A DNA stretch of 64,000 bases from Aquificaceae bacterium (GCA_037925075.1 JAXSNR010000002.1:224001-288000), one strand, 5' to 3'. Positions 1-11,524 are shown, counted from the stretch's first letter. Numbers and translations: made by a program. Notes: generated by a model not told the origin, from the letters alone.

Positions 1-116
1 TACATCCTAAGCTTACCATCAAGTTCTATAACAGAACCGTAAAGGTATGTATGCCTTTCTTCCCACGGGTACTCGGGACATAGCACAGGCTTTGGATGTT
101 TTACCACCTTAAACAT
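1..116 (-). CDS. 5' fragment of a gene running off the window; possible five-bladed beta-propeller (glycosidase-like) protein
   Basis: Manual translation from ATG at 116 gives MFKVVKHPKPVLCPEYPWEERHTYLYGSVIELDGKLRMY. SD GGAGGT upstream; start overlaps the stop of the 109..750 gene. The PVL.P..PWE...GSV...DG..RMY pattern is typical of propeller glycosidase N-termini. Confidence 0.45.
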   Translation of the reverse strand, partial: MFKVVKHPKPVLCPEYPWEERHTYLYGSVIELDGKLRM

Positions 117-750
117 TTACCTCCTCAAAGTTTAAAATATCCATATATTCCCATTCCCTGTATGCCATTGCGTATATACCAGCTTGGGACAAAAGCCTAA
201 CAAAGCCCTCGTTAAAACTTAAACTTCCCATTATAAGAATAAGCTTTTTGCCCGCATATTCAGAAAAGTATTCTAAAAACCTCTTTGCCTTTTCCTTAAA
301 CTCTTCTATGTGCTTTTCTCTTGGTGTGGATTTTACTTCAAGGAGAAAAACCTTATCTTCACATACCACCACAGCGTCAAATTCCTCATAAATGCCCTTG
401 TCTTTGTCTTCATACTCAAGCCTTAAAAATGCCTTCTTTGGCTCACATTTGAAGTATTGTCTGATAGCTGGTTTAAAGGCTGGGAAAATTATGTCTTCTA
501 CAATGGTTCCAAGCTTGTTAGATATTTCACCCCAACGCTTGTTATTCTCCCTGCGGTATTCCCTTATTTGTCTGTCAGTTTCTTCCTTATATTCCCTTAT
601 CTGCCTGTCTGTTTCTTTTCTGTACTCTTCCAGCCTTCTTTCGCCCTCCGCAATCATCCTGCTTGCCCAAAGCTTAAAGTCAAGCATTTCCCTAACAAGT
701 AGTTCTCCAAGCTTTTCCAGCCTTTCTACTCTGTCTTCAAGTTTTTCCAT
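109..750 (-). CDS. Coiled-coil plus PD-(D/E)XK nuclease-fold protein (DUF3782-like)
   Basis: N-terminal charged coiled coil; LGTIVE...EFDAVV...LLEVKS nuclease-like motif. Confidence 0.7.
   Translation of the reverse strand: MEKLEDRVERLEKLGELLVREMLDFKLWASRMIAEGERRLEEYRKETDRQIREYKEETDRQIREYRRENNKRWGEISNKLGTIVEDIIFPAFKPAIRQYFKCEPKKAFLRLEYEDKDKGIYEEFDAVVVCEDKVFLLEVKSTPREKHIEEFKEKAKRFLEYFSEYAGKKLILIMGSLSFNEGFVRLLSQAGIYAMAYREWEYMDILNFEEVNV
557..622. repeat. Two imperfect 33-bp tandem units encoding 11-residue coiled-coil repeats
   Basis: Units at 557-589 and 590-622; protein reads EYRKETDRQIR/EYKEETDRQIR/EYRRENNKRWG. Confidence 0.8.
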
Positions 751-765
751 AGTTCTAAATATATA

Positions 766-2802
766 TCACATCTTCCTAAAGACAGGTTGTAGTATTTGCC
801 CCTCTATCAGTTCATCTACCATCTGGTATTCCACCGCAAACTTTACAATATCAAGCACCTCATCGTATATTTCAAGGGTTTTTTCAATTATTTTATCTTC
901 GTGAGGTAGAGCCATATTGTGAGATCCTGTAAAAAGAAGCCCTCTTTTTCCGCATTCCTGTTGGAATAGAGTCTTTAATTTCAAAGCATTATCACCTTTA
1001 AAGTCCATTAAAAACCTTACATCGTATCCCTTTACAAAGGCTATATCCTCCATTTCCTTATCCTTTATAAGCTTCTCAATGCCTTCCTTTAGCTTTCTTC
1101 CTTGTCCCCATATGTAGGATATCACCTCGTGGTTTTTTAGGTATTCAATGGTGGCTATGGCTGACGCTATGCTTGCGGTTTCTCCGCCAAAGGTAAAGGA
1201 GAAAAAGACCTCTTCAAAAAGCTCCATTATCTCCCTTCTACCTACTATTGCGGATATGGGCATGCCGTTTCCCATGGCTTTTCCAAAGCAGGCAATGTCA
1301 GGAACCACTCCAAAGTACTCCTGAGCTCCACCCAAAGAGAAGCGAAAGCCTGTGACCACCTCATCAAATATCAGCAAAGCCCCGTGTTTGTGGGTTAGCT
1401 CTTTAACCTTCTCCAAAAAGCTATCCTTTGGCTCTTCCACTCCTACAGGCTCCATTATCACACAGGCTATTTGGTCTTTGTAATCTTCAAAAAGCTTTTC
1501 AAGGCTTTCTATGTGGTTGTATTCAAAGGTAAGGGTAAGCCTTTTTACCTCTTCTGGTATGCCCTTATCCCTTGAAGTGGTGCCAATGTACCAGTCTTGC
1601 CATCCATGATATCCACAGCAGGCTATGTATTTTCTTCCCGTGTAAGCCCTTGCAAGCCTGACGGCGGCGGATGTGACGTCTGAGCCGTTCTTACCAAAAC
1701 GCACCATCTCACAGCAAGGTATGACCTCCCTTAAAAGTTCAGCCAATTTTGTTTCAAGGTAGCTCGGCAAGCTAAAAATCGTCCCCCTTTTAAGCTCCTC
1801 TTTTACCCTTTCCAACACAGGTTCAAAGGCATAGCCAAGAATACATGCCCCCAAGCCCATTGTATAGTCTATGTATGTGTTTCCGTCAAGGTCTGTCAAA
1901 ATACATCCTTTGCCTTCTTTGACAAAAAGGGGAGAAGCACCCACTGAAAACTGCAGGTAAGATTTGCTAAAGGTTTGAGAGCAATTAGGTATGAGTTCTT
2001 TGGTTTTTTCAAAGTGTTTTAAGCTTTCTACAAGTTTTAGTGGCTTTCCCTTTAAGGACCTTATAAACTCCTTGTCTTCCTGCAAAGACTTTATGTATCC
2101 TTCGTTGGGAATGATCTCCTTTTCCCTTTTCAAAAGCTCGGGCTTTTCCTTTATAAGCCTTACCACATCCTCGTAGGTAAAGTCCTCCCTGCCTAGGGCT
2201 TTTATTATCCTTTCTATTACCACAAGGTCCTCTGGATAGTCAAGGCTAAGGTGTATGTGGGATAGGTCTTCCTCGTAAGGCCTGTAAAACAGCTTTTTGG
2301 CTCTTTTGGACTTCCTTATATAAGGGCTTACGTGTTCTCTTTCGGAGGGAAGCTTAGCTTTTTTATTAGCCTCAAGTATCCAGCCACCTTTTATTACCTC
2401 CACATCAAAGCCATCTATTATGCCAGTTAGGACAAGGTAGTCCACATCCTCTTCAAGGGCTTTTTTGTAGGCTTTTTCTATGACCTTTGGGTCAGAAAGG
2501 GGACAATCACCGGTTATTCTGATAACGAAATCAAGGGAAAATTCTTCTACCGCCTTTGCATACCTGCTAAGTACATCCGTAGGATGACCTTTTATTGCGT
2601 ACCATCCAAAGCTTTTTGCTATATTTATGAGCTCTGTATCCTCTTCAAGTAGGGATGTAACCAAAACCTTGCAGTCTACTTCTAACTTGTTTAGTCTTGT
2701 GAGAACCCACTCTATTGCCCTTTTACCAGCAAGGATAGCCACCATCTTTTTAGGAAATCTTGTAGAACCATTCCTTGCTTGTACCACCAAGCCCGTTTTC
2801 AT
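766..2802 (-). CDS. Fusion: SpsF/PseF-like cytidylyltransferase plus class III (GSA-like) PLP aminotransferase
   Basis: N-terminal QARNGSTRFPKK and RITGDCP motifs; C-terminal FDEVVTGFR and CFGKAMGNG (PLP lysine). Confidence 0.9.
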   Translation of the reverse strand: MKTGLVVQARNGSTRFPKKMVAILAGKRAIEWVLTRLNKLEVDCKVLVTSLLEEDTELINIAKSFGWYAIKGHPTDVLSRYAKAVEEFSLDFVIRITGDCPLSDPKVIEKAYKKALEEDVDYLVLTGIIDGFDVEVIKGGWILEANKKAKLPSEREHVSPYIRKSKRAKKLFYRPYEEDLSHIHLSLDYPEDLVVIERIIKALGREDFTYEDVVRLIKEKPELLKREKEIIPNEGYIKSLQEDKEFIRSLKGKPLKLVESLKHFEKTKELIPNCSQTFSKSYLQFSVGASPLFVKEGKGCILTDLDGNTYIDYTMGLGACILGYAFEPVLERVKEELKRGTIFSLPSYLETKLAELLREVIPCCEMVRFGKNGSDVTSAAVRLARAYTGRKYIACCGYHGWQDWYIGTTSRDKGIPEEVKRLTLTFEYNHIESLEKLFEDYKDQIACVIMEPVGVEEPKDSFLEKVKELTHKHGALLIFDEVVTGFRFSLGGAQEYFGVVPDIACFGKAMGNGMPISAIVGRREIMELFEEVFFSFTFGGETASIASAIATIEYLKNHEVISYIWGQGRKLKEGIEKLIKDKEMEDIAFVKGYDVRFLMDFKGDNALKLKTLFQQECGKRGLLFTGSHNMALPHEDKIIEKTLEIYDEVLDIVKFAVEYQMVDELIEGQILQPVFRKM

Positions 2803-3302
2803 AGTTTGACCTTTTCCATAATTATTTCATCAACATAACCGCCTTTGTAAAACCTCCTTTTGGTAAACCTACCTACCTCTCTGTAGCCCGCTTTTAAAAA
2901 TGCCTTGTAGGAAGCCACATTGCATGCGTATATACCCGCCATTATGTGGTTTAAATTTAGCTCTGTAAAAGCGTATTCTGTGGCAAGTTGTATGGCTTTT
3001 GTTCCATAACCCTTACCCCAACAACTTTTATCTCCGATTATTATGCCAATATCCGCACATCTATGAATCCAGTTTATACTGCCTATTTTTACATTTCCTA
3101 TATGCTTATCATCTTGCAAAAATATGCCAAATAAGAAATTGTTTTTTGAGCTATTAACAGACCTTACATAGCTTCGTAAATCCTCTAAGGTATAGGAGTC
3201 CCATCTTGACTCTAAATATTGGTTTATATCAGGGTCACTCAACCATTTAAGGTACTCAGGTGTTACATCTTCTGGTGTTAAGAGTTTTAGTTTTATATCC
3301 AT
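2799..3302 (-). CDS. GNAT (RimJ/RimL-type) N-acetyltransferase, PseH-like role possible
   Basis: WGKGYGT acetyl-CoA motif, N.AS..AF.K.GY; located in the pse cluster. Confidence 0.8.
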   Translation of the reverse strand: MDIKLKLLTPEDVTPEYLKWLSDPDINQYLESRWDSYTLEDLRSYVRSVNSSKNNFLFGIFLQDDKHIGNVKIGSINWIHRCADIGIIIGDKSCWGKGYGTKAIQLATEYAFTELNLNHIMAGIYACNVASYKAFLKAGYREVGRFTKRRFYKGGYVDEIIMEKVKL

Positions 3303-3304
3303 CC

Positions 3305-3737
3305 TTATGCCTCTCTTACTACCACATTTTTACCCTTTAAATACTGCTTTATTCTGACAATATCATAGTCTCTCAAAAAAAAGCATCTTTCCTATGGCGC
3401 AAGCATCAGCTTTCGTATTTTCAAAAAGCTCTACTATACTATCATAAGTTCCAGCACCTCCAGAAGCTATAAGTGGGACACTTATAAGCTCATCAACTCT
3501 TTTATAAAGATCTATATCAAAGCCTGTTAGTGTTCCTTCCTTATCTATGGAAGTTATAATTATTTCTCCTGCATCCATCTCCTGTACCTTTTCCAAGAGG
3601 GTTGGTAAGCTAATTTCAGTTTCAACACTACCAGAAAGTATGTAAACCTTGTAATCGCCAGAAGTATTTTTTCTTACATCAATAGACACCACAACAGATT
3701 GAGAGCCAATAAAATCTATAAATCCAACTTGCTTCAT
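3305..3737 (-). pseudogene. Chimeric hisH'/'hisF (WbuY/WbuZ-like) remnant, 5'-deleted and frameshifted
   Basis: GSQSVVVSID, AGEIIITSIDKEGTLTGFD and PLIASGGAG match the HisF C-half. The first 9 aa (MKQVGFIDF, after SD GGAGGTG) resemble a HisH start. Removing one base from the A8 tract at 3375-3382 restores a HisF-like end (LRDYDIVRIKQYLKGKNVVVREA, TAA at 3305). Confidence 0.75.
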
Positions 3738-3752
3738 AGTCCACACCTCCAC

Positions 3753-3851
3753 CTAATTATAATTTACCACATCAGACCTCTTTGTCCATATATTTTGTTT
3801 TTCGTACCACCTGTCCGCCTCGTATTTTTTAAAAACCTCGTATTGTCTCAT
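3753..3851 (-). pseudogene. 32-aa remnant ORF, probably a methyltransferase N-terminus joined to the C-terminus of another gene
   Basis: MRQYEVFKKYEADRWYEKQNIWTKRSDVVNYN, with SD GGAGGTG overlapping the AKR stop. Confidence 0.5.
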
Positions 3852-3855
3852 CTTT

Positions 3856-4710
3856 TCACCTCCATCTATAAGGTAATATAATATCCTTATCAACCACTTC
3901 TAAGCCTTCCCAGTTAAAGGTTATTTTGGGTTTGTTTGCGCATTCTACAATCTCCCTTAGCTGTGCAAGGCTATCTACGCCTACTATTATAAAATCCACG
4001 GGCTGTTCTAAAACAAAAGCAAGACAAAGGCAAGCAACATTCAAACCGCTTTCAATAGATAACCTTTTTAATTTTCTTACCTTATCTTTGACCTTTTCAA
4101 AAATCCCAGTAAGTTTTTCTTCGGGTAGGAAGAAAAGCCCTTGCAGGAATATAGACCTTGCGAAAAGGGTTATGTTTTCCCTTTTCCAGCCCTCTAAGTA
4201 CGGGATAAACCTTCTATCAAAGATGTTTATGGGAAATTCCACAGAGAAGCCTCCACCAAATAAGTCTAAAAATTCAAGCACTTCCCATGGATGGTACACA
4301 GATATGCCAAAACCTTCTACAAGACCTTCCTCTCTAAGCAAATACAGAGAATCTGTTATAAGTTCTCTATGGCTTTTATATGTCTCAAAGGAATGCAACA
4401 ATAAATGGTCAATCTTGCTTACATTTAGAGCTTCTAAGCTTTTTAAAACAGTTTGCTTAATATCTTTATAGCCAAGATACTCCTTCTTTGGAAGTTTTGT
4501 TATAACCTTCAAGCCCCTATTCCTTTTTGAAAAATACTCTCCTATTATTTTTTCCGCATCACCGTATGCCTGTGCGGTATCAACACCGTAAAAGTTATTT
4601 TCCAAGGCAAAATCCAAAATAGTAAAGGCTTGCTCCTTTGATAGCTTTTTTCCACATGCTATACCGTAATCCATTCCAAAGTTTGCAGTGCCAAGTATCA
4701 GTTTATTCAT
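3856..4710 (-). CDS. Aldo/keto reductase
   Basis: LILGTANFG, DTAQAYGDAE, ITKL, LLLHS and FGISVY motifs. Confidence 0.9.
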   Translation of the reverse strand: MNKLILGTANFGMDYGIACGKKLSKEQAFTILDFALENNFYGVDTAQAYGDAEKIIGEYFSKRNRGLKVITKLPKKEYLGYKDIKQTVLKSLEALNVSKIDHLLLHSFETYKSHRELITDSLYLLREEGLVEGFGISVYHPWEVLEFLDLFGGGFSVEFPINIFDRRFIPYLEGWKRENITLFARSIFLQGLFFLPEEKLTGIFEKVKDKVRKLKRLSIESGLNVACLCLAFVLEQPVDFIIVGVDSLAQLREIVECANKPKITFNWEGLEVVDKDIILPYRWR

Positions 4711-5827
4711 TTTTCAATGCGTCCTTTAGATTTTCTACCACAAACTCTAATTCCTCTTCTTTTAACGCAGGATAAATGGGCAGGCTTATCTCCCTTTCGT
4801 AAAAGTCCTCCGCGACCGGGCAAAGCCCCCTCTTGTAGCCAAGCCTTTCCATAAAGGGATGCCAATAGACGGGTATGTAGTGCACTTGAACGCCTATGCC
4901 TTTAGACCTAAGGCTTCTAAAAACTTCTCTTCTTTTGTCTCTATCCTTTAACCTTATTGGATAAAGGTGGTATGAGTGAAAGGCATAATCCTTTTCTACG
5001 GGAAGATATACTTCTTGATAGTTTATAAAGGCTTGTTTGTAATAGCTTGCTATCTGTCTTCTTCTTGCCACAAAGTGCCCAAACTTTTTAAGTTGAGAGA
5101 TACCAAGGGCACACTGAAAGTCCGTTATCCTAAAGTTAAAGGATGGAAACTCCACCGCATACTCCCAATCCTGACCTCTTACTATGCCGTGGTTTCTACA
5201 TCTTATAAGCCTTTCATACAAGTCCTCATCGTTGGTAAGTACCGCTCCTCCCTCTCCTGTGGTTATATGCTTTACGGGGTGAAAGCTAAAGACCACCGCA
5301 TGAGAGTATTTGCATGAGCCCGTTTTATAGCCCTTGTACTCTGAGCCAAGGGCATGACAGGCATCTTCCACCGCATACAGACCATACCTTTGAGCCAACT
5401 CCCAAACCTTTTCCATATCCACAGGATGTCCAGCGTAATGGACTGGGACTATGAGCTTTGTCTTTTCTGTTATAAGCCCTTCCAGAAGATCCACCTTCAT
5501 GTTGCCCGTATCCTCTTCCACATCGCAAAAGACCGCTCTGGCTCCAAGCAAAATACCTACAGAGACCGTGGCGGTAAAGGTTATGGGTGTGGTTATAAAT
5601 TCATCGCCTTCTTTTAGTCCTAAGGCTCTGTAAAGGCAATAAAGGGCTGAAGTACCAGAATTAAAGGCTACCGCATACTTTACACCGCAGTAATCTGCCA
5701 AGGCTCTTTCAAACTCCTCTACCTTAGGTCCCTGCGTTATAAAGTCAGACCTTAGGACTTCCAAGACAGCCCTTATATCCTCTTCATCTATACACTGCCT
5801 CCCGTAGGGTATCCTAAACTTCCACAT
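4703..5827 (-). CDS. pseC: UDP-4-amino-4,6-dideoxy-N-acetyl-beta-L-altrosamine transaminase
   Basis: IPYGRQ start, EDACHALG, FSFHPVKHITTGEGG; adjacent to pseB. Confidence 0.92.
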   Translation of the reverse strand: MWKFRIPYGRQCIDEEDIRAVLEVLRSDFITQGPKVEEFERALADYCGVKYAVAFNSGTSALYCLYRALGLKEGDEFITTPITFTATVSVGILLGARAVFCDVEEDTGNMKVDLLEGLITEKTKLIVPVHYAGHPVDMEKVWELAQRYGLYAVEDACHALGSEYKGYKTGSCKYSHAVVFSFHPVKHITTGEGGAVLTNDEDLYERLIRCRNHGIVRGQDWEYAVEFPSFNFRITDFQCALGISQLKKFGHFVARRRQIASYYKQAFINYQEVYLPVEKDYAFHSYHLYPIRLKDRDKRREVFRSLRSKGIGVQVHYIPVYWHPFMERLGYKRGLCPVAEDFYEREISLPIYPALKEEELEFVVENLKDALKNE

Positions 5828-6839
5828 ACTCCAAAGCCTTCTCTATAAAAGCCTTTAACTCCTCTCCTTCAAGCCACCAGTCGTTTTTATCGCTTCTGTA
5901 ATAAAAGCCTTCTGGCATTTTGGGATAGCTTGTCCATTTTTGTAATGCCTTTGCCTCAAAGTTAAACTGGGGAAGAATTACAAAGTATGTTTTTCCCTCG
6001 TGGTTTATGAGCCTTACGTCCCTAGCCTCATCTTCTGATATAAGGCTTTCGTGTAGCTTTTCTCCCGGCCTTATGCCTATTATTCTAAAGGAACAGTTGG
6101 GGCATAGAGCCCTTGCAATCTCCACCACCTTGACACTTGGTATCTTTGGTACAAAGATCTCACCGCCTTCGGAATGTTCAAGGGCAAAAAGGACAAGCTT
6201 GACGCCCTCTTGGAGAGTTATCCAAAAACGTGTCATATCTACATGGGTTATGGGAAGCTCCTTACAGCCTTCGGATATGAGCCTTAGGAACAGGGGGATA
6301 ACACTTCCTCTACTGCCTACCACGTTGCCATACCTAACTATGCTAAAGCTCGTCTCCTTAGAGCCAGCGTAGGCATTACCTGCAATAAAAAGCTTTTCCA
6401 TGGTTAGCTTTGTGGCACCGTATAGGTTTATGGGGTTTACCGCCTTGTCGGTGGAAAGAGCGACCACCTTTTTTACTCCCTTCTCTATGGCAACTTCAAT
6501 GATGTTCTGAGCACCGATTATGTTGGTTTTTACCGCCTCAAAGGGGTTGTATTCAAGTATGGGTACATGCTTTAAAGCCGCCGCATGCACCACACAATCC
6601 ACACCATCAAAGGCAAGCCTTAGCCTGTCCTTGTCCCTTATATCACCAAGAAAGAACCTCAGCTGTGGATACTGGTCCTCTGGAAACTCTTTACTCATCT
6701 GCCACTGTTTGAACTCGTCCCTGCTTAGGATAATGACCTTTTTGGGCTTGTAGTTTTTCAAAACATACCTTACAAAAGCCTTTCCAAAGGAGCCAGTGCC
6801 TCCCGTTATAAGAATCGTTTTATCATCCAGAAAGCTCAT
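5814..6839 (-). CDS. pseB: UDP-N-acetylglucosamine 4,6-dehydratase (inverting)
   Basis: GGTGSFG, SRDEFKQ, HAAALKHVP, YGATK, RYGNVVGSRGSV. Confidence 0.95.
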   Translation of the reverse strand: MSFLDDKTILITGGTGSFGKAFVRYVLKNYKPKKVIILSRDEFKQWQMSKEFPEDQYPQLRFFLGDIRDKDRLRLAFDGVDCVVHAAALKHVPILEYNPFEAVKTNIIGAQNIIEVAIEKGVKKVVALSTDKAVNPINLYGATKLTMEKLFIAGNAYAGSKETSFSIVRYGNVVGSRGSVIPLFLRLISEGCKELPITHVDMTRFWITLQEGVKLVLFALEHSEGGEIFVPKIPSVKVVEIARALCPNCSFRIIGIRPGEKLHESLISEDEARDVRLINHEGKTYFVILPQFNFEAKALQKWTSYPKMPEGFYYRSDKNDWWLEGEELKAFIEKALEYVEV

Positions 6840-7879
6840 TCCACAAGCCCCCAGCTTAAAGGCGTGCCTGCGGGTATATCTACCTTTGCCCTCCTGCCCA
6901 ATATATCCTTAAGATACTTAGGGTGCATACCATAGCTTGGTCTTATACTTCTTACCTTCTCCTCTGTGAAAACCTCTCCAGCTTTCATATCCTTCACCAC
7001 GAAAAGGCTTCTTGAAAACTTTCTCATCTCCTTTTGTTTCTCTGTTAGCTCATAGCTTACCTTGCCAAGGGCCTTCTCCACCTGCCTTATGGCCTTCACC
7101 ATGGCTTTGAACTCAGCGGGCTCAAGGGAAAAGGCACTGTCTGGTCCTCCAAGGCTTCTGTCTAGTATAAAGTGCTTTTCCACCATGACCGCACCAAGGG
7201 CAACCGCCGCAATGGGTACAGATATGCCAAGGGTATGGTCAGAAAGCCCCACGAGCACGCCAAAGGTCTCCCTCATATTGGGTATGGTTCTAAGGTTAGC
7301 TTCTTCATAAGGTGTAGGATATTCTGAGACGCATTTGAGAAGCACTATTTGGCTGTTTCCAGCCCTCTTACAGGCATTTATGGCCTCTTCTATGTCCGAA
7401 AGGGTCGCAATGCCAGTGGAGATTATCACAGGCTTTCCCTTGCTGGCTATGTATTCAATCAAGGGTATGTCCGTTATCTCAAAGGAAGCGACCTTGTAAG
7501 CGGGAGTTCCAAGCTCCTCCAAAAAATCCACCGCACTTTTGTCAAAGGGTGAAGAAAAACACAAAAGACCAAGATCTCTGGCAAAGCTAAAGAGCTTTTC
7601 GTGCCATTCCCAAGGTGTATATGCCTTTTTATAAAGGTCATAAAGGTACTGCCCATCCCAAAGGGTACCTTCTTTTATCATGAAGTATTCGTTTCTTACG
7701 TTAAGGGTTATGGTATCCGGCGTATAAGTTTGTAGCTTTACCGCGTCCGCACCAGATTCCTTTATGGCTTCTATGGTCTTCAGGGCAAGGTCTAAGTTTT
7801 GAAGATGGTTTGCGGAAAGCTCAGCCACTATAAAAACCGGCTCACCTTCCCCTATTTTTCTGTCCCCTATCCTAATCAT
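6836..7879 (-). CDS. pseI: Pseudaminic acid synthase
   Basis: AELSANH, KLQTYTPDTIT, GTLWDG, SDHTLG; C-terminal SAF domain. Confidence 0.93.
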   Translation of the reverse strand: MIRIGDRKIGEGEPVFIVAELSANHLQNLDLALKTIEAIKESGADAVKLQTYTPDTITLNVRNEYFMIKEGTLWDGQYLYDLYKKAYTPWEWHEKLFSFARDLGLLCFSSPFDKSAVDFLEELGTPAYKVASFEITDIPLIEYIASKGKPVIISTGIATLSDIEEAINACKRAGNSQIVLLKCVSEYPTPYEEANLRTIPNMRETFGVLVGLSDHTLGISVPIAAVALGAVMVEKHFILDRSLGGPDSAFSLEPAEFKAMVKAIRQVEKALGKVSYELTEKQKEMRKFSRSLFVVKDMKAGEVFTEEKVRSIRPSYGMHPKYLKDILGRRAKVDIPAGTPLSWGLVE

Positions 7880-9807
7880 CCAAACTCCTCCACGAGCCTC
7901 TTTATTTCTCTGCTTGCCTCCTTTAGAAACTGATAGTATAATCTGTAAAACTCTTCCATAAATTCCTTCATCTCTTGACCGCTAAGGCCCAAGGCATGCC
8001 CCAAAGCTATCTGGCTCCAACCGTGGGTATTATGGTATATAAGATTGTAAAGTATTGGGTTCTTAATGGAAATAAGCTTTCTCTCAAGCTCCACAAAACT
8101 CCAAACTGTATTGTAATAACTTGAAAAATCAAATCTACTTGGATATTCTCTTATAAACTCTGATAGCAGTTCAAAATCTGTTTGAAGTTTTTTAAGGACT
8201 TCTACGGGTTTTATAAGTCTTGTGTATCTTGTGTCAAAGTTCTCTTCTATGTTTTTTATGGCTGTTGCCTTATCGGTTGACTTTTCAAGTCTAAAAAACT
8301 CTATGGGTAAAGGTACAGCACCTTCTATCTTTGCACCGTCAGAGGTGTTATAAACCTTTATTCCCTTCTTCTTTATGGTTTGCTCTATGCCGTATTTGGT
8401 GTTCAAAAACCATCTATGGGTTTTTACCTTTCCGCCAAAGTTTCCTTCTACCTCTATATCAAATTCTATGTTAGACTTGGAAAGAAAACTCTTTGGGTTG
8501 TAGTAGTTTGTGAGCTTTGAGTGGTGGCTTTCCGTATCCTTTGAGCCAAGGTCTACACCAAAGAGGTATACCTCTTCAAAGCCAAACTCTCCAGCAAGGG
8601 CGACTCCTGCTGCGGTAACGGTGGGTCCAGTATGCCATATTATTGGTGGTCCAGTAGGCTCCAAAAACAGGGCTCCAGTGTCGTTGAGCTTTAAAAACAT
8701 GTATCCCTTTTTAAAGAGTTTAAAGCAATCTGTCCAAAGGGGGTTGTTGGCTATGAGCCTTGTCTGTTTGAGAAAGTTTCTGTCTACTTCCAAAAGGGTA
8801 TCGTAGGTGTACTTGGTCCTTTCTATCTCTACGTGAAAGTCTGGGACTATGCCAGCCCTTTGCAAGGCGGATATGGCTGTTCCGCAAGAAAATATAACCG
8901 CTTTATCCTGATACTCCCTTATCTTATCAATGGCGTAGTCTAAGGATGGTCCTGCACCAATTACGAAGGCGACAGAACCGGGGGGTACCTTTTCCTGTGG
9001 ATAGTATAGAGGTATCTTTTTCTTAATCTTTTCTAAGGTCCATCTCAAAGACCAAAGCTCGTCGTCAAAATACCCATGAAAGAGCTCTTGGAAGGCGGGG
9101 ACGGAAGAAAACCACTCTAACACTCTCATAGGTGGGTTGTACTTGAGATGTTCGAAGTAATAGCTCCAATAGAAAACACCGGGATTTAGCTGCTGAATGG
9201 TGCGTAAAAGCTCTTCAAAAGCTAATTCAAGACGCTGTTCCATTATAAGCTTGTCATGCACTATAAGGTTTAGGCTCCTGCCGGGCTTTGAAAAGTATTC
9301 TATAATCTTTTCCCAATCAAGGTAGTAAAGGCTTAGCCTGAAAAAGGCGGGTACATCAAGAATGATAAGGTTTTGAATTTCATACCTTTGAAGTAAAAGT
9401 TCAAGATGTATGCCAAAGCCAAGACCTACTAGGAGAAGTGCAGGTATATGTTTTGTTTCCCTTAGTGACTCTGGCTCTACTTTGTTTCCTATGAGCTTTT
9501 GTATCTTGGCGTCATAGCGATGTGCTATCACGGACGTATCCTCTGTAAACTCTCTAAGGCTTATATCTGGAAACATCCTCGTAGGTTTTTCTTCAAAGGC
9601 TTGCACCTGAGAAAGACTAACTCCATAAGCATCTCCCTTGTAGATGCCGCCTCCTCCAAAGTCCGCATCCAGCTTACCATCCTTGACTATCACGTTAAAG
9701 TTGCTGGATATGTTTGATAAGAGCTGAAGTATACCGGGGAGTCGCCTACTAAGAAATTCGTGGTTTTTGTGTATTCTCTCTTTTAGAAACTCTTCTGTTA
9801 TCTCCAT
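7876..9807 (-). CDS. maf: Motility-associated factor (Maf, DUF115) flagellin glycosyltransferase
   Basis: VIGAGPSLD, PDFHVEIER, GPTVT, LFGVDLG, GAKIEGA; divergent from flagellin. Confidence 0.88.
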   Translation of the reverse strand: MEITEEFLKERIHKNHEFLSRRLPGILQLLSNISSNFNVIVKDGKLDADFGGGGIYKGDAYGVSLSQVQAFEEKPTRMFPDISLREFTEDTSVIAHRYDAKIQKLIGNKVEPESLRETKHIPALLLVGLGFGIHLELLLQRYEIQNLIILDVPAFFRLSLYYLDWEKIIEYFSKPGRSLNLIVHDKLIMEQRLELAFEELLRTIQQLNPGVFYWSYYFEHLKYNPPMRVLEWFSSVPAFQELFHGYFDDELWSLRWTLEKIKKKIPLYYPQEKVPPGSVAFVIGAGPSLDYAIDKIREYQDKAVIFSCGTAISALQRAGIVPDFHVEIERTKYTYDTLLEVDRNFLKQTRLIANNPLWTDCFKLFKKGYMFLKLNDTGALFLEPTGPPIIWHTGPTVTAAGVALAGEFGFEEVYLFGVDLGSKDTESHHSKLTNYYNPKSFLSKSNIEFDIEVEGNFGGKVKTHRWFLNTKYGIEQTIKKKGIKVYNTSDGAKIEGAVPLPIEFFRLEKSTDKATAIKNIEENFDTRYTRLIKPVEVLKKLQTDFELLSEFIREYPSRFDFSSYYNTVWSFVELERKLISIKNPILYNLIYHNTHGWSQIALGHALGLSGQEMKEFMEEFYRLYYQFLKEASREIKRLVEEFG

Positions 9808-9931: not shown

Positions 9932-11524
9932 ATGGCACTAAGGATTAACTTTAACTATGAGGCCGCGGCAACACACACAAGCATCCTCTCCAACGAGAGG
10001 GAGATGAACAAGTCTCTGCTTAGGCTTTCCACAGGCTTGAGGATACTCAACGCAGCGGATGACTCCGCAGGTCTCTTTATCGCAGACCAACTTATGATAG
10101 TAGGTTCAGGTCTGGAAGAGGGCAACAGGAACATCCAGACAGGCCTCTCAGCTCTTAGGATTGCAGAAAGCTCCGCAGGTCAGATATTCAACAGGCTAAA
10201 CGAAATCTACAAAAGGACAGTACGTGCAGCAAACGACATAAACGACCCAAACGCAAGGTCAAGCCTTCAGAGGGAAATTGACAACTTCATCGATGCCATC
10301 AAAAAGATAGGTACGGACACCGAGTACAACGGGATAAAGCTTCTTGACGGAACCTTTGCTGGCAGGGCAATTCACTACGGAGCAAGAAAAGACCAAGTGC
10401 TAGAGGTGGACATAAAGAGTGTTCTTCCTAATGACATAGGCGCCTACATGGTAAATGGGCAAGGTGCAAGGTATACTCCTGCAGCTAACGCGGTAACAGC
10501 TGGAACCTTTGCTGACCTGCTTAGCATCTCATCCAATTGGCTAGTGGATTCAGGAGACTATGTGGATATAGCAGGTATTAGGGTACTTGCTGATGATGGA
10601 ACGCAGAGGTTTGTAGACGCAAAAACCCTCGCACAAAACATAAACAGCAACAAGGACCTTCAGGCTATTGGTATAGAAGCGGTTGCAAAGAACACAAACA
10701 AAGCGAATGCTACTTATGCTGGATTTGCTAATTTTTGGTCACCCGTAGGAACAGATGATACAGTAAATTACGTTACGCTTAATTTCTTTATAGGCAATGC
10801 TAATGCAGGTGGCACTCAAAATTTCCAAGTTACCATAAACAGTAGCATAACCAGTGTGCAGCAGCTGGCGGATGCTATAAACACCGCAGCCTCTGGAGCA
10901 GGTTCTCCCATAAGCGCCAAGGTTGTGGACAGCAAACTCTTTCTTGAAACCAATAATGGAGAAACCATAGCGGTACAGGTGGCTGTGGATGGGTCTTTCG
11001 CTTCAAACGGTGTGACCATAAATCTTGGGCAAATATTAGAGGGGGCTGGCACTGTTACCTTTACAGCAGGCACAAATTATGCCTACTACATAGACGTTGG
11101 TACAGTTGATATTGCAGGCGTGGACACATACAAGCTTGAATACAGTGGAGTTTCTGCTTCTAACGAGGGCTTTAACTTTAACGTAACTAGCGGTGCTAGC
11201 GCTACTGCTAAAAATCTCTATGCGGTAAGCGTGCTTACAAACGAAAAGGCGGAAGAGTCCATGCTCATAGTCAAGAAAGCCCTCCAACGTGTGGACACTG
11301 TCAGGGCTCAGATAGGTGCGGTTATGAACAACTTGCAGTCCATATACGACTCTCAAAAAGTGGCATGGGACAACACCAAGGAAGCTGAGAACGTTATAAG
11401 AAACACCGACTATGCGGAGGAGATGACCAACTTCACCAAGCTCCAGATAAAGATGCAGTCCTCTATGGCAATGCTGGCACAGGCTAACCAACTGCCCCAG
11501 CTTGTGCTCCAGCTCCTCAGATAA
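9932..11524 (+). CDS. fliC: Flagellin
   Basis: MALRIN...RLSTGLRI..AADDSAG N-terminus; AQANQLPQLVLQLLR C-terminus; Ser/Thr/Ala/Gly-rich variable middle. Confidence 0.97.
   Translation: MALRINFNYEAAATHTSILSNEREMNKSLLRLSTGLRILNAADDSAGLFIADQLMIVGSGLEEGNRNIQTGLSALRIAESSAGQIFNRLNEIYKRTVRAANDINDPNARSSLQREIDNFIDAIKKIGTDTEYNGIKLLDGTFAGRAIHYGARKDQVLEVDIKSVLPNDIGAYMVNGQGARYTPAANAVTAGTFADLLSISSNWLVDSGDYVDIAGIRVLADDGTQRFVDAKTLAQNINSNKDLQAIGIEAVAKNTNKANATYAGFANFWSPVGTDDTVNYVTLNFFIGNANAGGTQNFQVTINSSITSVQQLADAINTAASGAGSPISAKVVDSKLFLETNNGETIAVQVAVDGSFASNGVTINLGQILEGAGTVTFTAGTNYAYYIDVGTVDIAGVDTYKLEYSGVSASNEGFNFNVTSGASATAKNLYAVSVLTNEKAEESMLIVKKALQRVDTVRAQIGAVMNNLQSIYDSQKVAWDNTKEAENVIRNTDYAEEMTNFTKLQIKMQSSMAMLAQANQLPQLVLQLLR

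Follow-up and report, generated by a model that had tools for sequence, protein, structure and literature searches.

The window analysed here, a stretch of 64,000 nucleotides from an Aquificaceae bacterium of hot-spring type (GCA_037925075.1, JAXSNR010000002.1:224001-288000; positions are counted from its first letter), carries an operon for flagellin glycosylation in which the genes for pseudaminic acid (Pse) synthesis are accompanied by an aldo-keto reductase (AKR) and by a two-domain protein, an SpsF-type cytidylyltransferase fused to a class III aminotransferase (AT3). The best explanation of this gene set, to which we give a probability of about 0.6, is that the C8 hydroxyl of the sugar would be oxidised and then transaminated, yielding a 5,7,8-triamino nonulosonate on flagellin. 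A third nitrogen somewhere on the glycan appears highly probable; that it is precisely C8 which the AKR oxidises and AT3 transaminates appears reasonably probable, judging from sequence and from analogy with related systems. The observations behind this proposal are the gene content, the intact catalytic residues, the co-occurrence of the two enzymes and the exchange of the AKR's partner.

All the genes of the run are on the minus strand, in the order maf, pseI, pseB, pseC, AKR, remnants of a methyltransferase and of HisF2, GNAT acetyltransferase and SpsF::AT3 fusion, divergent from the plus-strand flagellin gene, with overlaps of 4-14 bases within maf-pseI-pseB-pseC-AKR and within GNAT-fusion. 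An earlier note on this DNA had described the run beside flagellin, and family scans (Pfam, NCBIfam) find its genes where it had placed them. The AKR (3856..4710, PF00248), the proposed C8 dehydrogenase, belongs to a subfamily specific to pse clusters and has D44, Y49, K72 and H106, which we take to be the Asp-Tyr-Lys-His catalytic tetrad, invariant in 29/29 aligned members. The fusion (766..2802, 678 aa; CTP_transf_3 at residues 6-168, Aminotran_3 at residues 290-629) has close relatives among Aquificaceae proteins, including a fusion that is 71% identical in the cultured strain Hydrogenobacter thermophilus TK-6. Its N-terminal SpsF-type domain (2038..2802, PF02348; match to PDB 6OEW at E 6e-30) retains the cytidylyltransferase motifs, and its C-terminal class III domain (766..2037, PF00202), similar to glutamate-1-semialdehyde aminomutase (GSAM) and the proposed C8 transaminase, conserves the pyridoxal phosphate residues D480 and K508. 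With both proteins full length and all catalytic residues present, the AKR and the fusion appear intact. A profile search of representatives gave a family size of 7956 proteins at E 1e-30.

AT3 falls under every cut-off of the NCBIfam models for HemL, the GSAM of heme synthesis (TIGR00713 included; 291 of 527 bits), and the genome carries a separate HemL of its own. In a phylogeny of the aminotransferase against HemL, as the earlier note had proposed, 96 module rows and 4 HemL rows stand on opposite sides of a branch with a support of 99, and the HemL N-terminal motif (PGGVNSP), gating loop and threonine-loop AGTLSGN motif are all replaced in AT3. Cut-offs, own HemL, tree split and motif loss all agree with that note's view of the domain as something other than HemL. 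The predicted model of AT3 (mean pLDDT, the per-residue confidence score, 91.8) is closest in fold to GSAMs, to which it is about 30% identical, and PctV and FumI rank lower; the fold search returned nothing past the GSAM-like fold, and an Atlas search only generic class III clusters. FumI acts at the carbon adjoining the terminal methyl of a polyol chain, and C8 of Pse would need such chemistry.

A genome scan, of whose 592 relatives the best 80 were kept, provided 79 loci with a full AT3, annotated with profiles built from the same 79 loci. An oxidoreductase, either an AKR or a member of the Gfo/Idh/MocA family (GFO), is found beside AT3 in 71 of them (AKR in 24, GFO in 48, both in 1), mostly directly before SpsF, and GFO::SpsF::AT3 triple fusions are present in 12. 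NeuB accompanies AT3 in 64 loci and PseB in 59, a GNAT in only 21. Along the AT3 tree the partner changes 9 times, at least 5 of them forced by strong branches. Within the window's own family (90 genomes) the fusion is found in 16 genomes, the AKR in 16 and both in 13. Two AKR genomes have SpsF and AT3 as split genes, a third (G014) has the AKR and no partner on its 6.6-kb contig, and four Aquificaceae pse loci (G024, G084, G086, G087) have a stand-alone SpsF and neither AKR nor AT3. In G070 the AKR was not found, SpsF is whole and AT3 holds a stop, as expected if AT3 is useless alone. Judging from their co-occurrence, the AKR and AT3 seem to behave as a coupled pair, in line with the oxidise-then-aminate pair of the earlier note, and we consider the module a real, common and uncharacterised variant of Pse tailoring.

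A way to approach the position of the reaction is to look at the partners of the AKR. When 400 Gammaproteobacteria were searched with the AKR as the starting point, 11 loci were obtained in addition to the centre genome, all of them within pse clusters; 8 have AT3, 2 have a short-chain dehydrogenase/reductase (SDR) and 1 is truncated at the end of its contig. In each of the 10 informative loci the partner is either AT3 or an SDR. One of the SDR loci (L182) has an SpsF::AKR fusion with an SDR, and the AKR tree has 4 SDR-partnered rows in 3 places among 38 AT3-partnered rows. AKR-SDR pairs also stand beside pse genes on Bacillus and Priestia plasmids. An Acidobacteria locus (L086:8296-12025) has an SpsF::AKR fusion adjoining an SpsF::AT3 fusion; the first of its SpsF copies belongs to a divergent type that AKR-SDR loci contain as well.

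The L182 layout is that of EpaA (an SpsF-type domain plus AKR, 542 aa) and EpaB (an SDR) of Acinetobacter baumannii prophages, which convert Pse to 8-epi-Pse as followed by nuclear magnetic resonance, according to the available part of PMC12053666. Most likely EpaA oxidises the C8 hydroxyl in this epimerisation. The window shares with this system an SpsF-type CTP_transf_3 domain and an AKR beside pse genes, and the AKR subfamily includes the same two-domain layout (L086, L182). The difference is that EpaB restores a hydroxyl, whereas here a class III aminotransferase is present and SpsF is fused to it and not to the AKR; no EpaB-type SDR was found in the 20-kb locus, where AT3 occupies the partner role. 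A protein of EpaA layout is 29% identical to the window AKR (E 9e-22), EpaA itself being compared by layout only. EpaA was not among the best 120 of 870 SpsF::AKR relatives, and a phage collection gave only a generic Tas AKR; of two primers used to locate epaA, one matched the end of a contig on a record without an AKR and the other matched nothing. The PHROG label shared by the window AKR and EpaA (phrog_8735) was discarded as a link, as it denotes the general AKR family and is uninformative. A second comparator is ElaA, a GFO which the accessible text of PMC13656337 proposes as the C8 dehydrogenase of CMP-legionaminic acid (CMP-Leg), acting before reduction by the SDR ElaC. ElaA, ElaB and ElaC form a similar triplet of oxidoreductase, cytidylyltransferase and fate enzyme, and the ElaA family is the one that replaces the AKR in 48 of the 79 loci. 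They differ in using Leg and not Pse, an SDR and not an aminotransferase, and a NeuA-type synthetase, with a reaction proposed, in that text, from structures, docking and mutants. In the simplest reading, by analogy, a single C8 keto intermediate would have two fates, an SDR leading to the epimer and AT3 to the amine. Along these lines C8, the site suggested in the earlier note, is also the one to which the AKR-SDR layout and the ElaA family most probably point.

The earlier note had taken its precedent from KdnA and KdnB of Shewanella, which oxidise C8 of 3-deoxy-D-manno-octulosonic acid (Kdo) and then transaminate it, the same sequence that we propose for the AKR and AT3. KdnB is a metal-dependent alcohol dehydrogenase. 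KdnA was wrongly assigned there to class III: KdnA (PDB 5K8B) matches PseC at E 6e-38, while AT3 and PseC show no similarity (E 1.8), and among the 198 PDB matches to the fusion 5K8B is not one of the best 60. Homology of AT3 to KdnA is thus rejected, and since KdnA is of the DegT/PseC type and AT3 is unlike PseC, the 8-amino-Kdo pathway is a chemical analogy, in which, besides, C8 of Kdo is a primary alcohol. Neither member of a KdnB-type dehydrogenase and KdsB cluster was found at this locus, the oxidoreductase being an AKR and the strong CTP_transf_3 gene of the genome being about 460 kb away.

The route from UDP-GlcNAc to Pse through PseB, PseC, PseH, PseG and PseI is an established pathway, and its genes are present here. 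PseC, the C4 aminotransferase (4703..5827; TIGR03588, 473 bits vs cut-off 424), PseB, the inverting UDP-GlcNAc 4,6-dehydratase (5814..6839; TIGR03589, 492 vs 408), and the Pse synthase PseI (6836..7879; TIGR03586, 533 vs 340), which is the sole NeuB-type gene that the genome yielded, are encoded on the minus strand and score above their cut-offs. They are preceded in the operon by Maf, a flagellin glycosyltransferase of 643 aa (7876..9807, minus strand; PF20157 Maf_flag10_N and PF01973 above cut-off), adjoining flagellin. The cluster does not end at position 766, as had been assumed, and goes on past the left window edge, where (G000:C2:218906-224116) the beta-propeller gene described below is followed by a methyltransferase, WbqC, a PIG-L deacetylase, a formyltransferase::PseH fusion (170 bits vs PseH cut-off 93) and a convergent pseG, a full-length match just under its cut-off (145-146 bits vs 153.55) that lies 5 kb from the fusion. 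With these last two genes the core pathway appears complete, and the idea that the AKR and AT3 stand in for a missing PseG or PseH was dropped. The window GNAT (2799..3302, minus strand) is not PseH either, with 46 bits against the TIGR03585 cut-off of 93 and 19-24% identity to PseH-like proteins; since the true PseH is outside the window, this GNAT is an extra enzyme and a candidate N-acetyltransferase for the new amine. With respect to the canonical CMP-Pse flagellin pathway (PseB, C, H, G, I, F and Maf), PseF is replaced by the SpsF-type domain fused to a second aminotransferase, and the AKR and GNAT are additional. Canonical PseF (TIGR03584) was found in 0 of the 90 family genomes at E 1e-20, which together with the remoteness of the strong CTP_transf_3 gene leaves the SpsF domain as the only candidate CMP-nonulosonate synthetase and agrees with the CMP activation envisaged in the earlier note. 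Leg transfer in Bacillus subtilis depends on spsF (PMC7439481).

In the proposed pathway PseB, PseC, PseH (in its formyltransferase fusion), PseG and PseI would make pseudaminic acid and, as is strongly suggested, the SpsF domain would add CMP. The AKR would then oxidise the C8 hydroxyl to a ketone and the fused AT3 would turn this into an amine, in place of an SDR reduction. The extra GNAT may acetylate the new amine, a tentative assignment, and the deacetylase and formyltransferase would probably exchange one N-acetyl for a formyl group. Maf, judging from its position, would move the 5,7,8-triamino-pentadeoxy-nonulosonate onto serine or threonine residues of flagellin; the genome has two further Maf genes. 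The order is also a prediction; amination before CMP addition, as first envisaged, is not established, and CMP first is slightly favoured, the closer precedent, ElaA, being proposed to act on a CMP-sugar. The likely acceptor is the 530-aa flagellin (9932..11524, plus strand; Pfam Flagellin_N and Flagellin_C), the first gene of fliC-flaG-fliD-fliS, with 45 Ser and Thr among the 265 residues of its central region.

The nearest described gene sets are those of the polar flagellin islands of Aeromonas groups IA-IE, whose subgroups have either both the AKR and the class III aminotransferase or neither; A. hydrophila AH-1, of group IA, has pseC-AKR-pseF-class III aminotransferase-pseG (PMC7874193). 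Both systems have pseB, pseC, AKR, cytidylyltransferase, class III aminotransferase, pseG and pseI beside maf and flagellin, with the AKR directly after pseC. In Aeromonas, compared here by gene class and not by alignment, the genes are unfused and the order of pseI and pseG differs; the GNAT, formyltransferase, deacetylase, WbqC and methyltransferase are additions of the window locus. A published primer, tried as a route to the Aeromonas locus, gave one match, by chance. The AH-1 flagellin carries a Pse-like sugar of 403 Da (oxonium ion m/z 404), with the formula C19H32O9 in the part of PMC4691044 available. This formula is nitrogen-free and would be a radical cation. Only two even-electron CHNO formulas are within 10 ppm of it, C17H30N3O8+ (-3.3 ppm) and C22H30NO6+ (+6.6 ppm), offsets that are relative to the published formula and not to a measured m/z. 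C17H30N3O8+, with a calculated m/z of 404.2027, is the one that suits a derivative of a diamino sugar bearing a third nitrogen, and 403 Da implies an odd nitrogen count. Group II Aeromonas, whose islands, as far as described in the accessible part of bioRxiv 2024.05.20.594992, list neither gene, have even masses of 376 and 422 Da, and the A. caviae Sch3N flagellin sugar 316 Da (same source). An A. caviae strain at 373 Da, an odd mass, is a limit on the mass argument, its gene content not being established in the available part of the review that lists it (PMC8625153).

A sugar with the predicted backbone has been described on the O-antigen, not the flagellin, of Tenacibaculum (Flexibacter) maritimum: a 5,7,8-triamino-3,5,7,8,9-pentadeoxy manno-nonulosonate, according to the accessible part of a review (PMC3210612). 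Its genes are stated to be unknown in the available text of PMC9796276, and the T. maritimum literature that we consulted does not name the genes of the module. No publication that gives a class III aminotransferase a part in Pse modification came up in our literature search, which was thin on subscription journals; for Aeromonas the gene set has been published with no function assigned (PMC7874193). The mass shift of -1 Da for OH to NH2 put forward as a test by the earlier note has less power than claimed because 8-amino-Pse5Ac7Ac is an isomer of acetamidino Pse5Am7Ac (both 315.143). Besides, further changes in the glycan mass will come from the formyl, methyl and WbqC genes that lie beyond the window edge. 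The residue masses calculated for the predicted sugar are 315.143 with 8-NH2, 357.154 with 8-NHAc, 329.159 with 8-NHMe and 343.138 with one formyl group and 8-NHAc.

Several points weigh against the proposed C8 amination. The links to EpaA, ElaA, Aeromonas and Tenacibaculum are of domain layout and gene order, not alignments. The AH-1 argument leans on mass offsets taken from a formula in which, as given in the available part of PMC4691044, the authors place no nitrogen; the third nitrogen could be that of an amidine or an amino-acyl group, and the remaining C8H12O4 is not accounted for by the described island. The sample of 79 loci, the best 80 of 592 relatives, is rich in related Acidobacteria, and includes 2 loci with an SDR as the only oxidoreductase and 6 without any (2 of these short-flanked). 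Among the relatives, G059 (99% complete) and G069 have an intact fusion and no AKR was found in them, and in G065 the AKR is broken. Lastly, members of the AT3 clade on haloarchaeal plasmids are in clusters without nonulosonate genes, and therefore the clade is not tied to a single substrate.

The alternative that survives best, unlikely as we consider it, is that the pair adds nitrogen to an acyl side chain or small substituent, attached by the GNAT, WbqC or formyltransferase at N5, N7 or O8, with the C8 oxygen kept. Small aldehydes and ketones are the usual substrates of class III enzymes, as the nearest structures (GSAMs, PctV, FumI) illustrate, several acyl-transfer genes are in the cluster, and the odd-nitrogen 403-Da sugar is compatible with it too. 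However, AT3 and both kinds of oxidoreductase have the CMP-sugar synthetase, and not acyltransferases, as fusion partner or neighbour, the AKR subfamily with its SDR matches the layout of a proven backbone C8 epimerase, and a GNAT is present in so few of the AT3 loci. Rather improbable is that the product is 8-epi-Pse or plain Pse, with the AKR working in C8 redox and AT3 being an epimerase-like helper, a bystander or inactive here. The two gene remnants could be read as decay of the locus, one partner is lost or broken in the relatives G059, G065, G069 and G070, and a Vibrio strain (B9-25K2) with SpsF::AKR and a dehydrogenase makes a PseAc2 isomer, possibly an epimer in the authors' words as available (PMC7371886). 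Against this, the AKR and AT3 are full length with complete catalytic residues, the cluster has no epimerase-type SDR, and AT3 and SDR are alternative partners in every informative locus. Amination elsewhere on the backbone has to be weighed as well, either at C4 of the nonulosonate, which together with C8 bears the two free hydroxyls of Pse, or at C3 of the precursor, a UDP-hexose. GFO enzymes like WbpB oxidise C3 of UDP-sugars, and matches of WbpB and WlbA type were found; but UDP-sugar transaminases are DegT-type, the cytidylyltransferase fusion suggests a step late in the pathway, C8 is the site of action in both comparator systems (EpaA/EpaB and ElaA), and the only triamino nonulosonate that we found reported, in the accessible sources, is the 8-amino sugar of T. 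maritimum, so that we regard this possibility as improbable. That the C-terminal domain is a HemL unrelated to the glycan, as the names on its best NCBIfam and PDB matches would have it, is scarcely credible in view of its scores, the genome's own HemL, the tree split and the replaced motifs.

Beyond the C8 amination proposed for this locus, a more general reading is that SpsF, an AKR or GFO, and a class III aminotransferase form a general route to 5,7,8-triamino nonulosonates that spans many bacterial phyla, archaea and viruses, that this route belongs, as one arm, to a two-by-two system for editing C8 (two oxidases that can replace each other, with an SDR leading to the epimer and the aminotransferase to the amine), and that the 403-Da sugar of AH-1 is its three-nitrogen product. 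Taken jointly we advance this tentatively, at slightly less than even odds. If true, amino-substituted, charge-neutralised analogues of sialic acid would be common and not a curiosity of a single species. The C8 amination would itself assign genes to a sugar class known from one structure, lead to a re-reading of the AH-1 flagellin glycan, and yield a specific prediction for hundreds of clusters annotated 'glutamate-1-semialdehyde aminomutase'. A free or acylated C8 amine would alter the surface charge and the epitope presented to flagellotropic phages and antibodies, and thermostable enzymes of this family would be practical tools for new nonulosonate analogues. The window locus, one instance of a common module, has its value as a clean test case with culturable relatives and not as a unique system.

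Some further loci are worth describing. A Halorussus plasmid (L143:1082-12212) has GFO-SpsF-AT3 with NeuB, DegT and PseG-like genes, and the module therefore reaches archaea; on other haloarchaeal plasmids (L117, L119) members of the AT3 clade adjoin DegT, amidohydrolases and transporters, possibly for amino-sugar catabolism. IMG/VR records (L144-L159), some labelled GVMAG (giant-virus bins), contain pse genes together with the AKR and SpsF::AT3, with a GC content of about 20%, and in others the module set is next to a weak Maf match. A Methylomagnum plasmid (L118:7247-13692) has SpsF, a split transketolase, AT3, SDR, NeuB and a HAD phosphatase and no pseB or pseC, which suggests that the module also serves an ulosonate of 2-keto-3-deoxynononic acid (KDN) type or with a higher carbon number. 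In an Aquificaceae pse locus without AKR or AT3 (L126:5050-10453) SpsF is followed, by reading the sequences, by a different Gfo/Idh/MocA enzyme, a methyltransferase, an iron-type alcohol dehydrogenase-like gene and a radical-SAM-like gene.

Between the AKR and the GNAT the operon contains the first 32 codons of an S-adenosylmethionine (SAM) methyltransferase (3753..3851, minus strand; tblastn 43% over 46 positions, E 3e-8), intact in relatives at the same slot, joined to the 3' half of WbuZ/HisF2 (3363..3752, minus strand; TIGR03572 positions 119-232 of 232), a gene of the acetamidino cassette. Acetamidino modification in this strain is unlikely, with HisF2 reduced to half a gene and no amidotransferase of the family found in the genome with nine family members as queries. 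An intact GNAT is found in 25 and a methyltransferase at the slot in 12 of 92 loci, never both, which may mean that the new amine is capped by one or the other; we do not rely on it because the window locus has the methyltransferase remnant beside the GNAT and 9 of the 11 amidotransferase loci carry this GNAT too. The formyltransferase::PseH fusion (366-368 aa) is kept in three genomes (L005:15879-16979), adjoining the PIG-L deacetylase and WbqC, a neighbourhood pointing to N-formyl or N-glycyl Pse. For Kuenenia, a deacetylase and a formyltransferase have been suggested to give an N-formyl group, in the available part of bioRxiv 2026.04.20.719630.

The left end of the window holds two more minus-strand genes. 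A coiled-coil and nuclease-like open reading frame (109..750; only a weak NERD match, E 0.005) is found between operon genes in 5 compared loci, all of Aquificaceae, and is probably a passenger. The other is a beta-propeller hydrolase-like gene of 356 aa, of which only the 5' end (1..116) is in the window; this glycoside-hydrolase-like gene is kept in Aquificaceae and Nitrospirota pse clusters (for example L006:9046-10116) with or without the amination pair, and we know of no role for it in Pse synthesis. Finally, the two additional Maf paralogues of the genome (G000:C2:617921-619813 and C1:737597-739519) are full length and about 44-47% identical to the Maf family queries, giving three Maf genes against a single flagellin gene.

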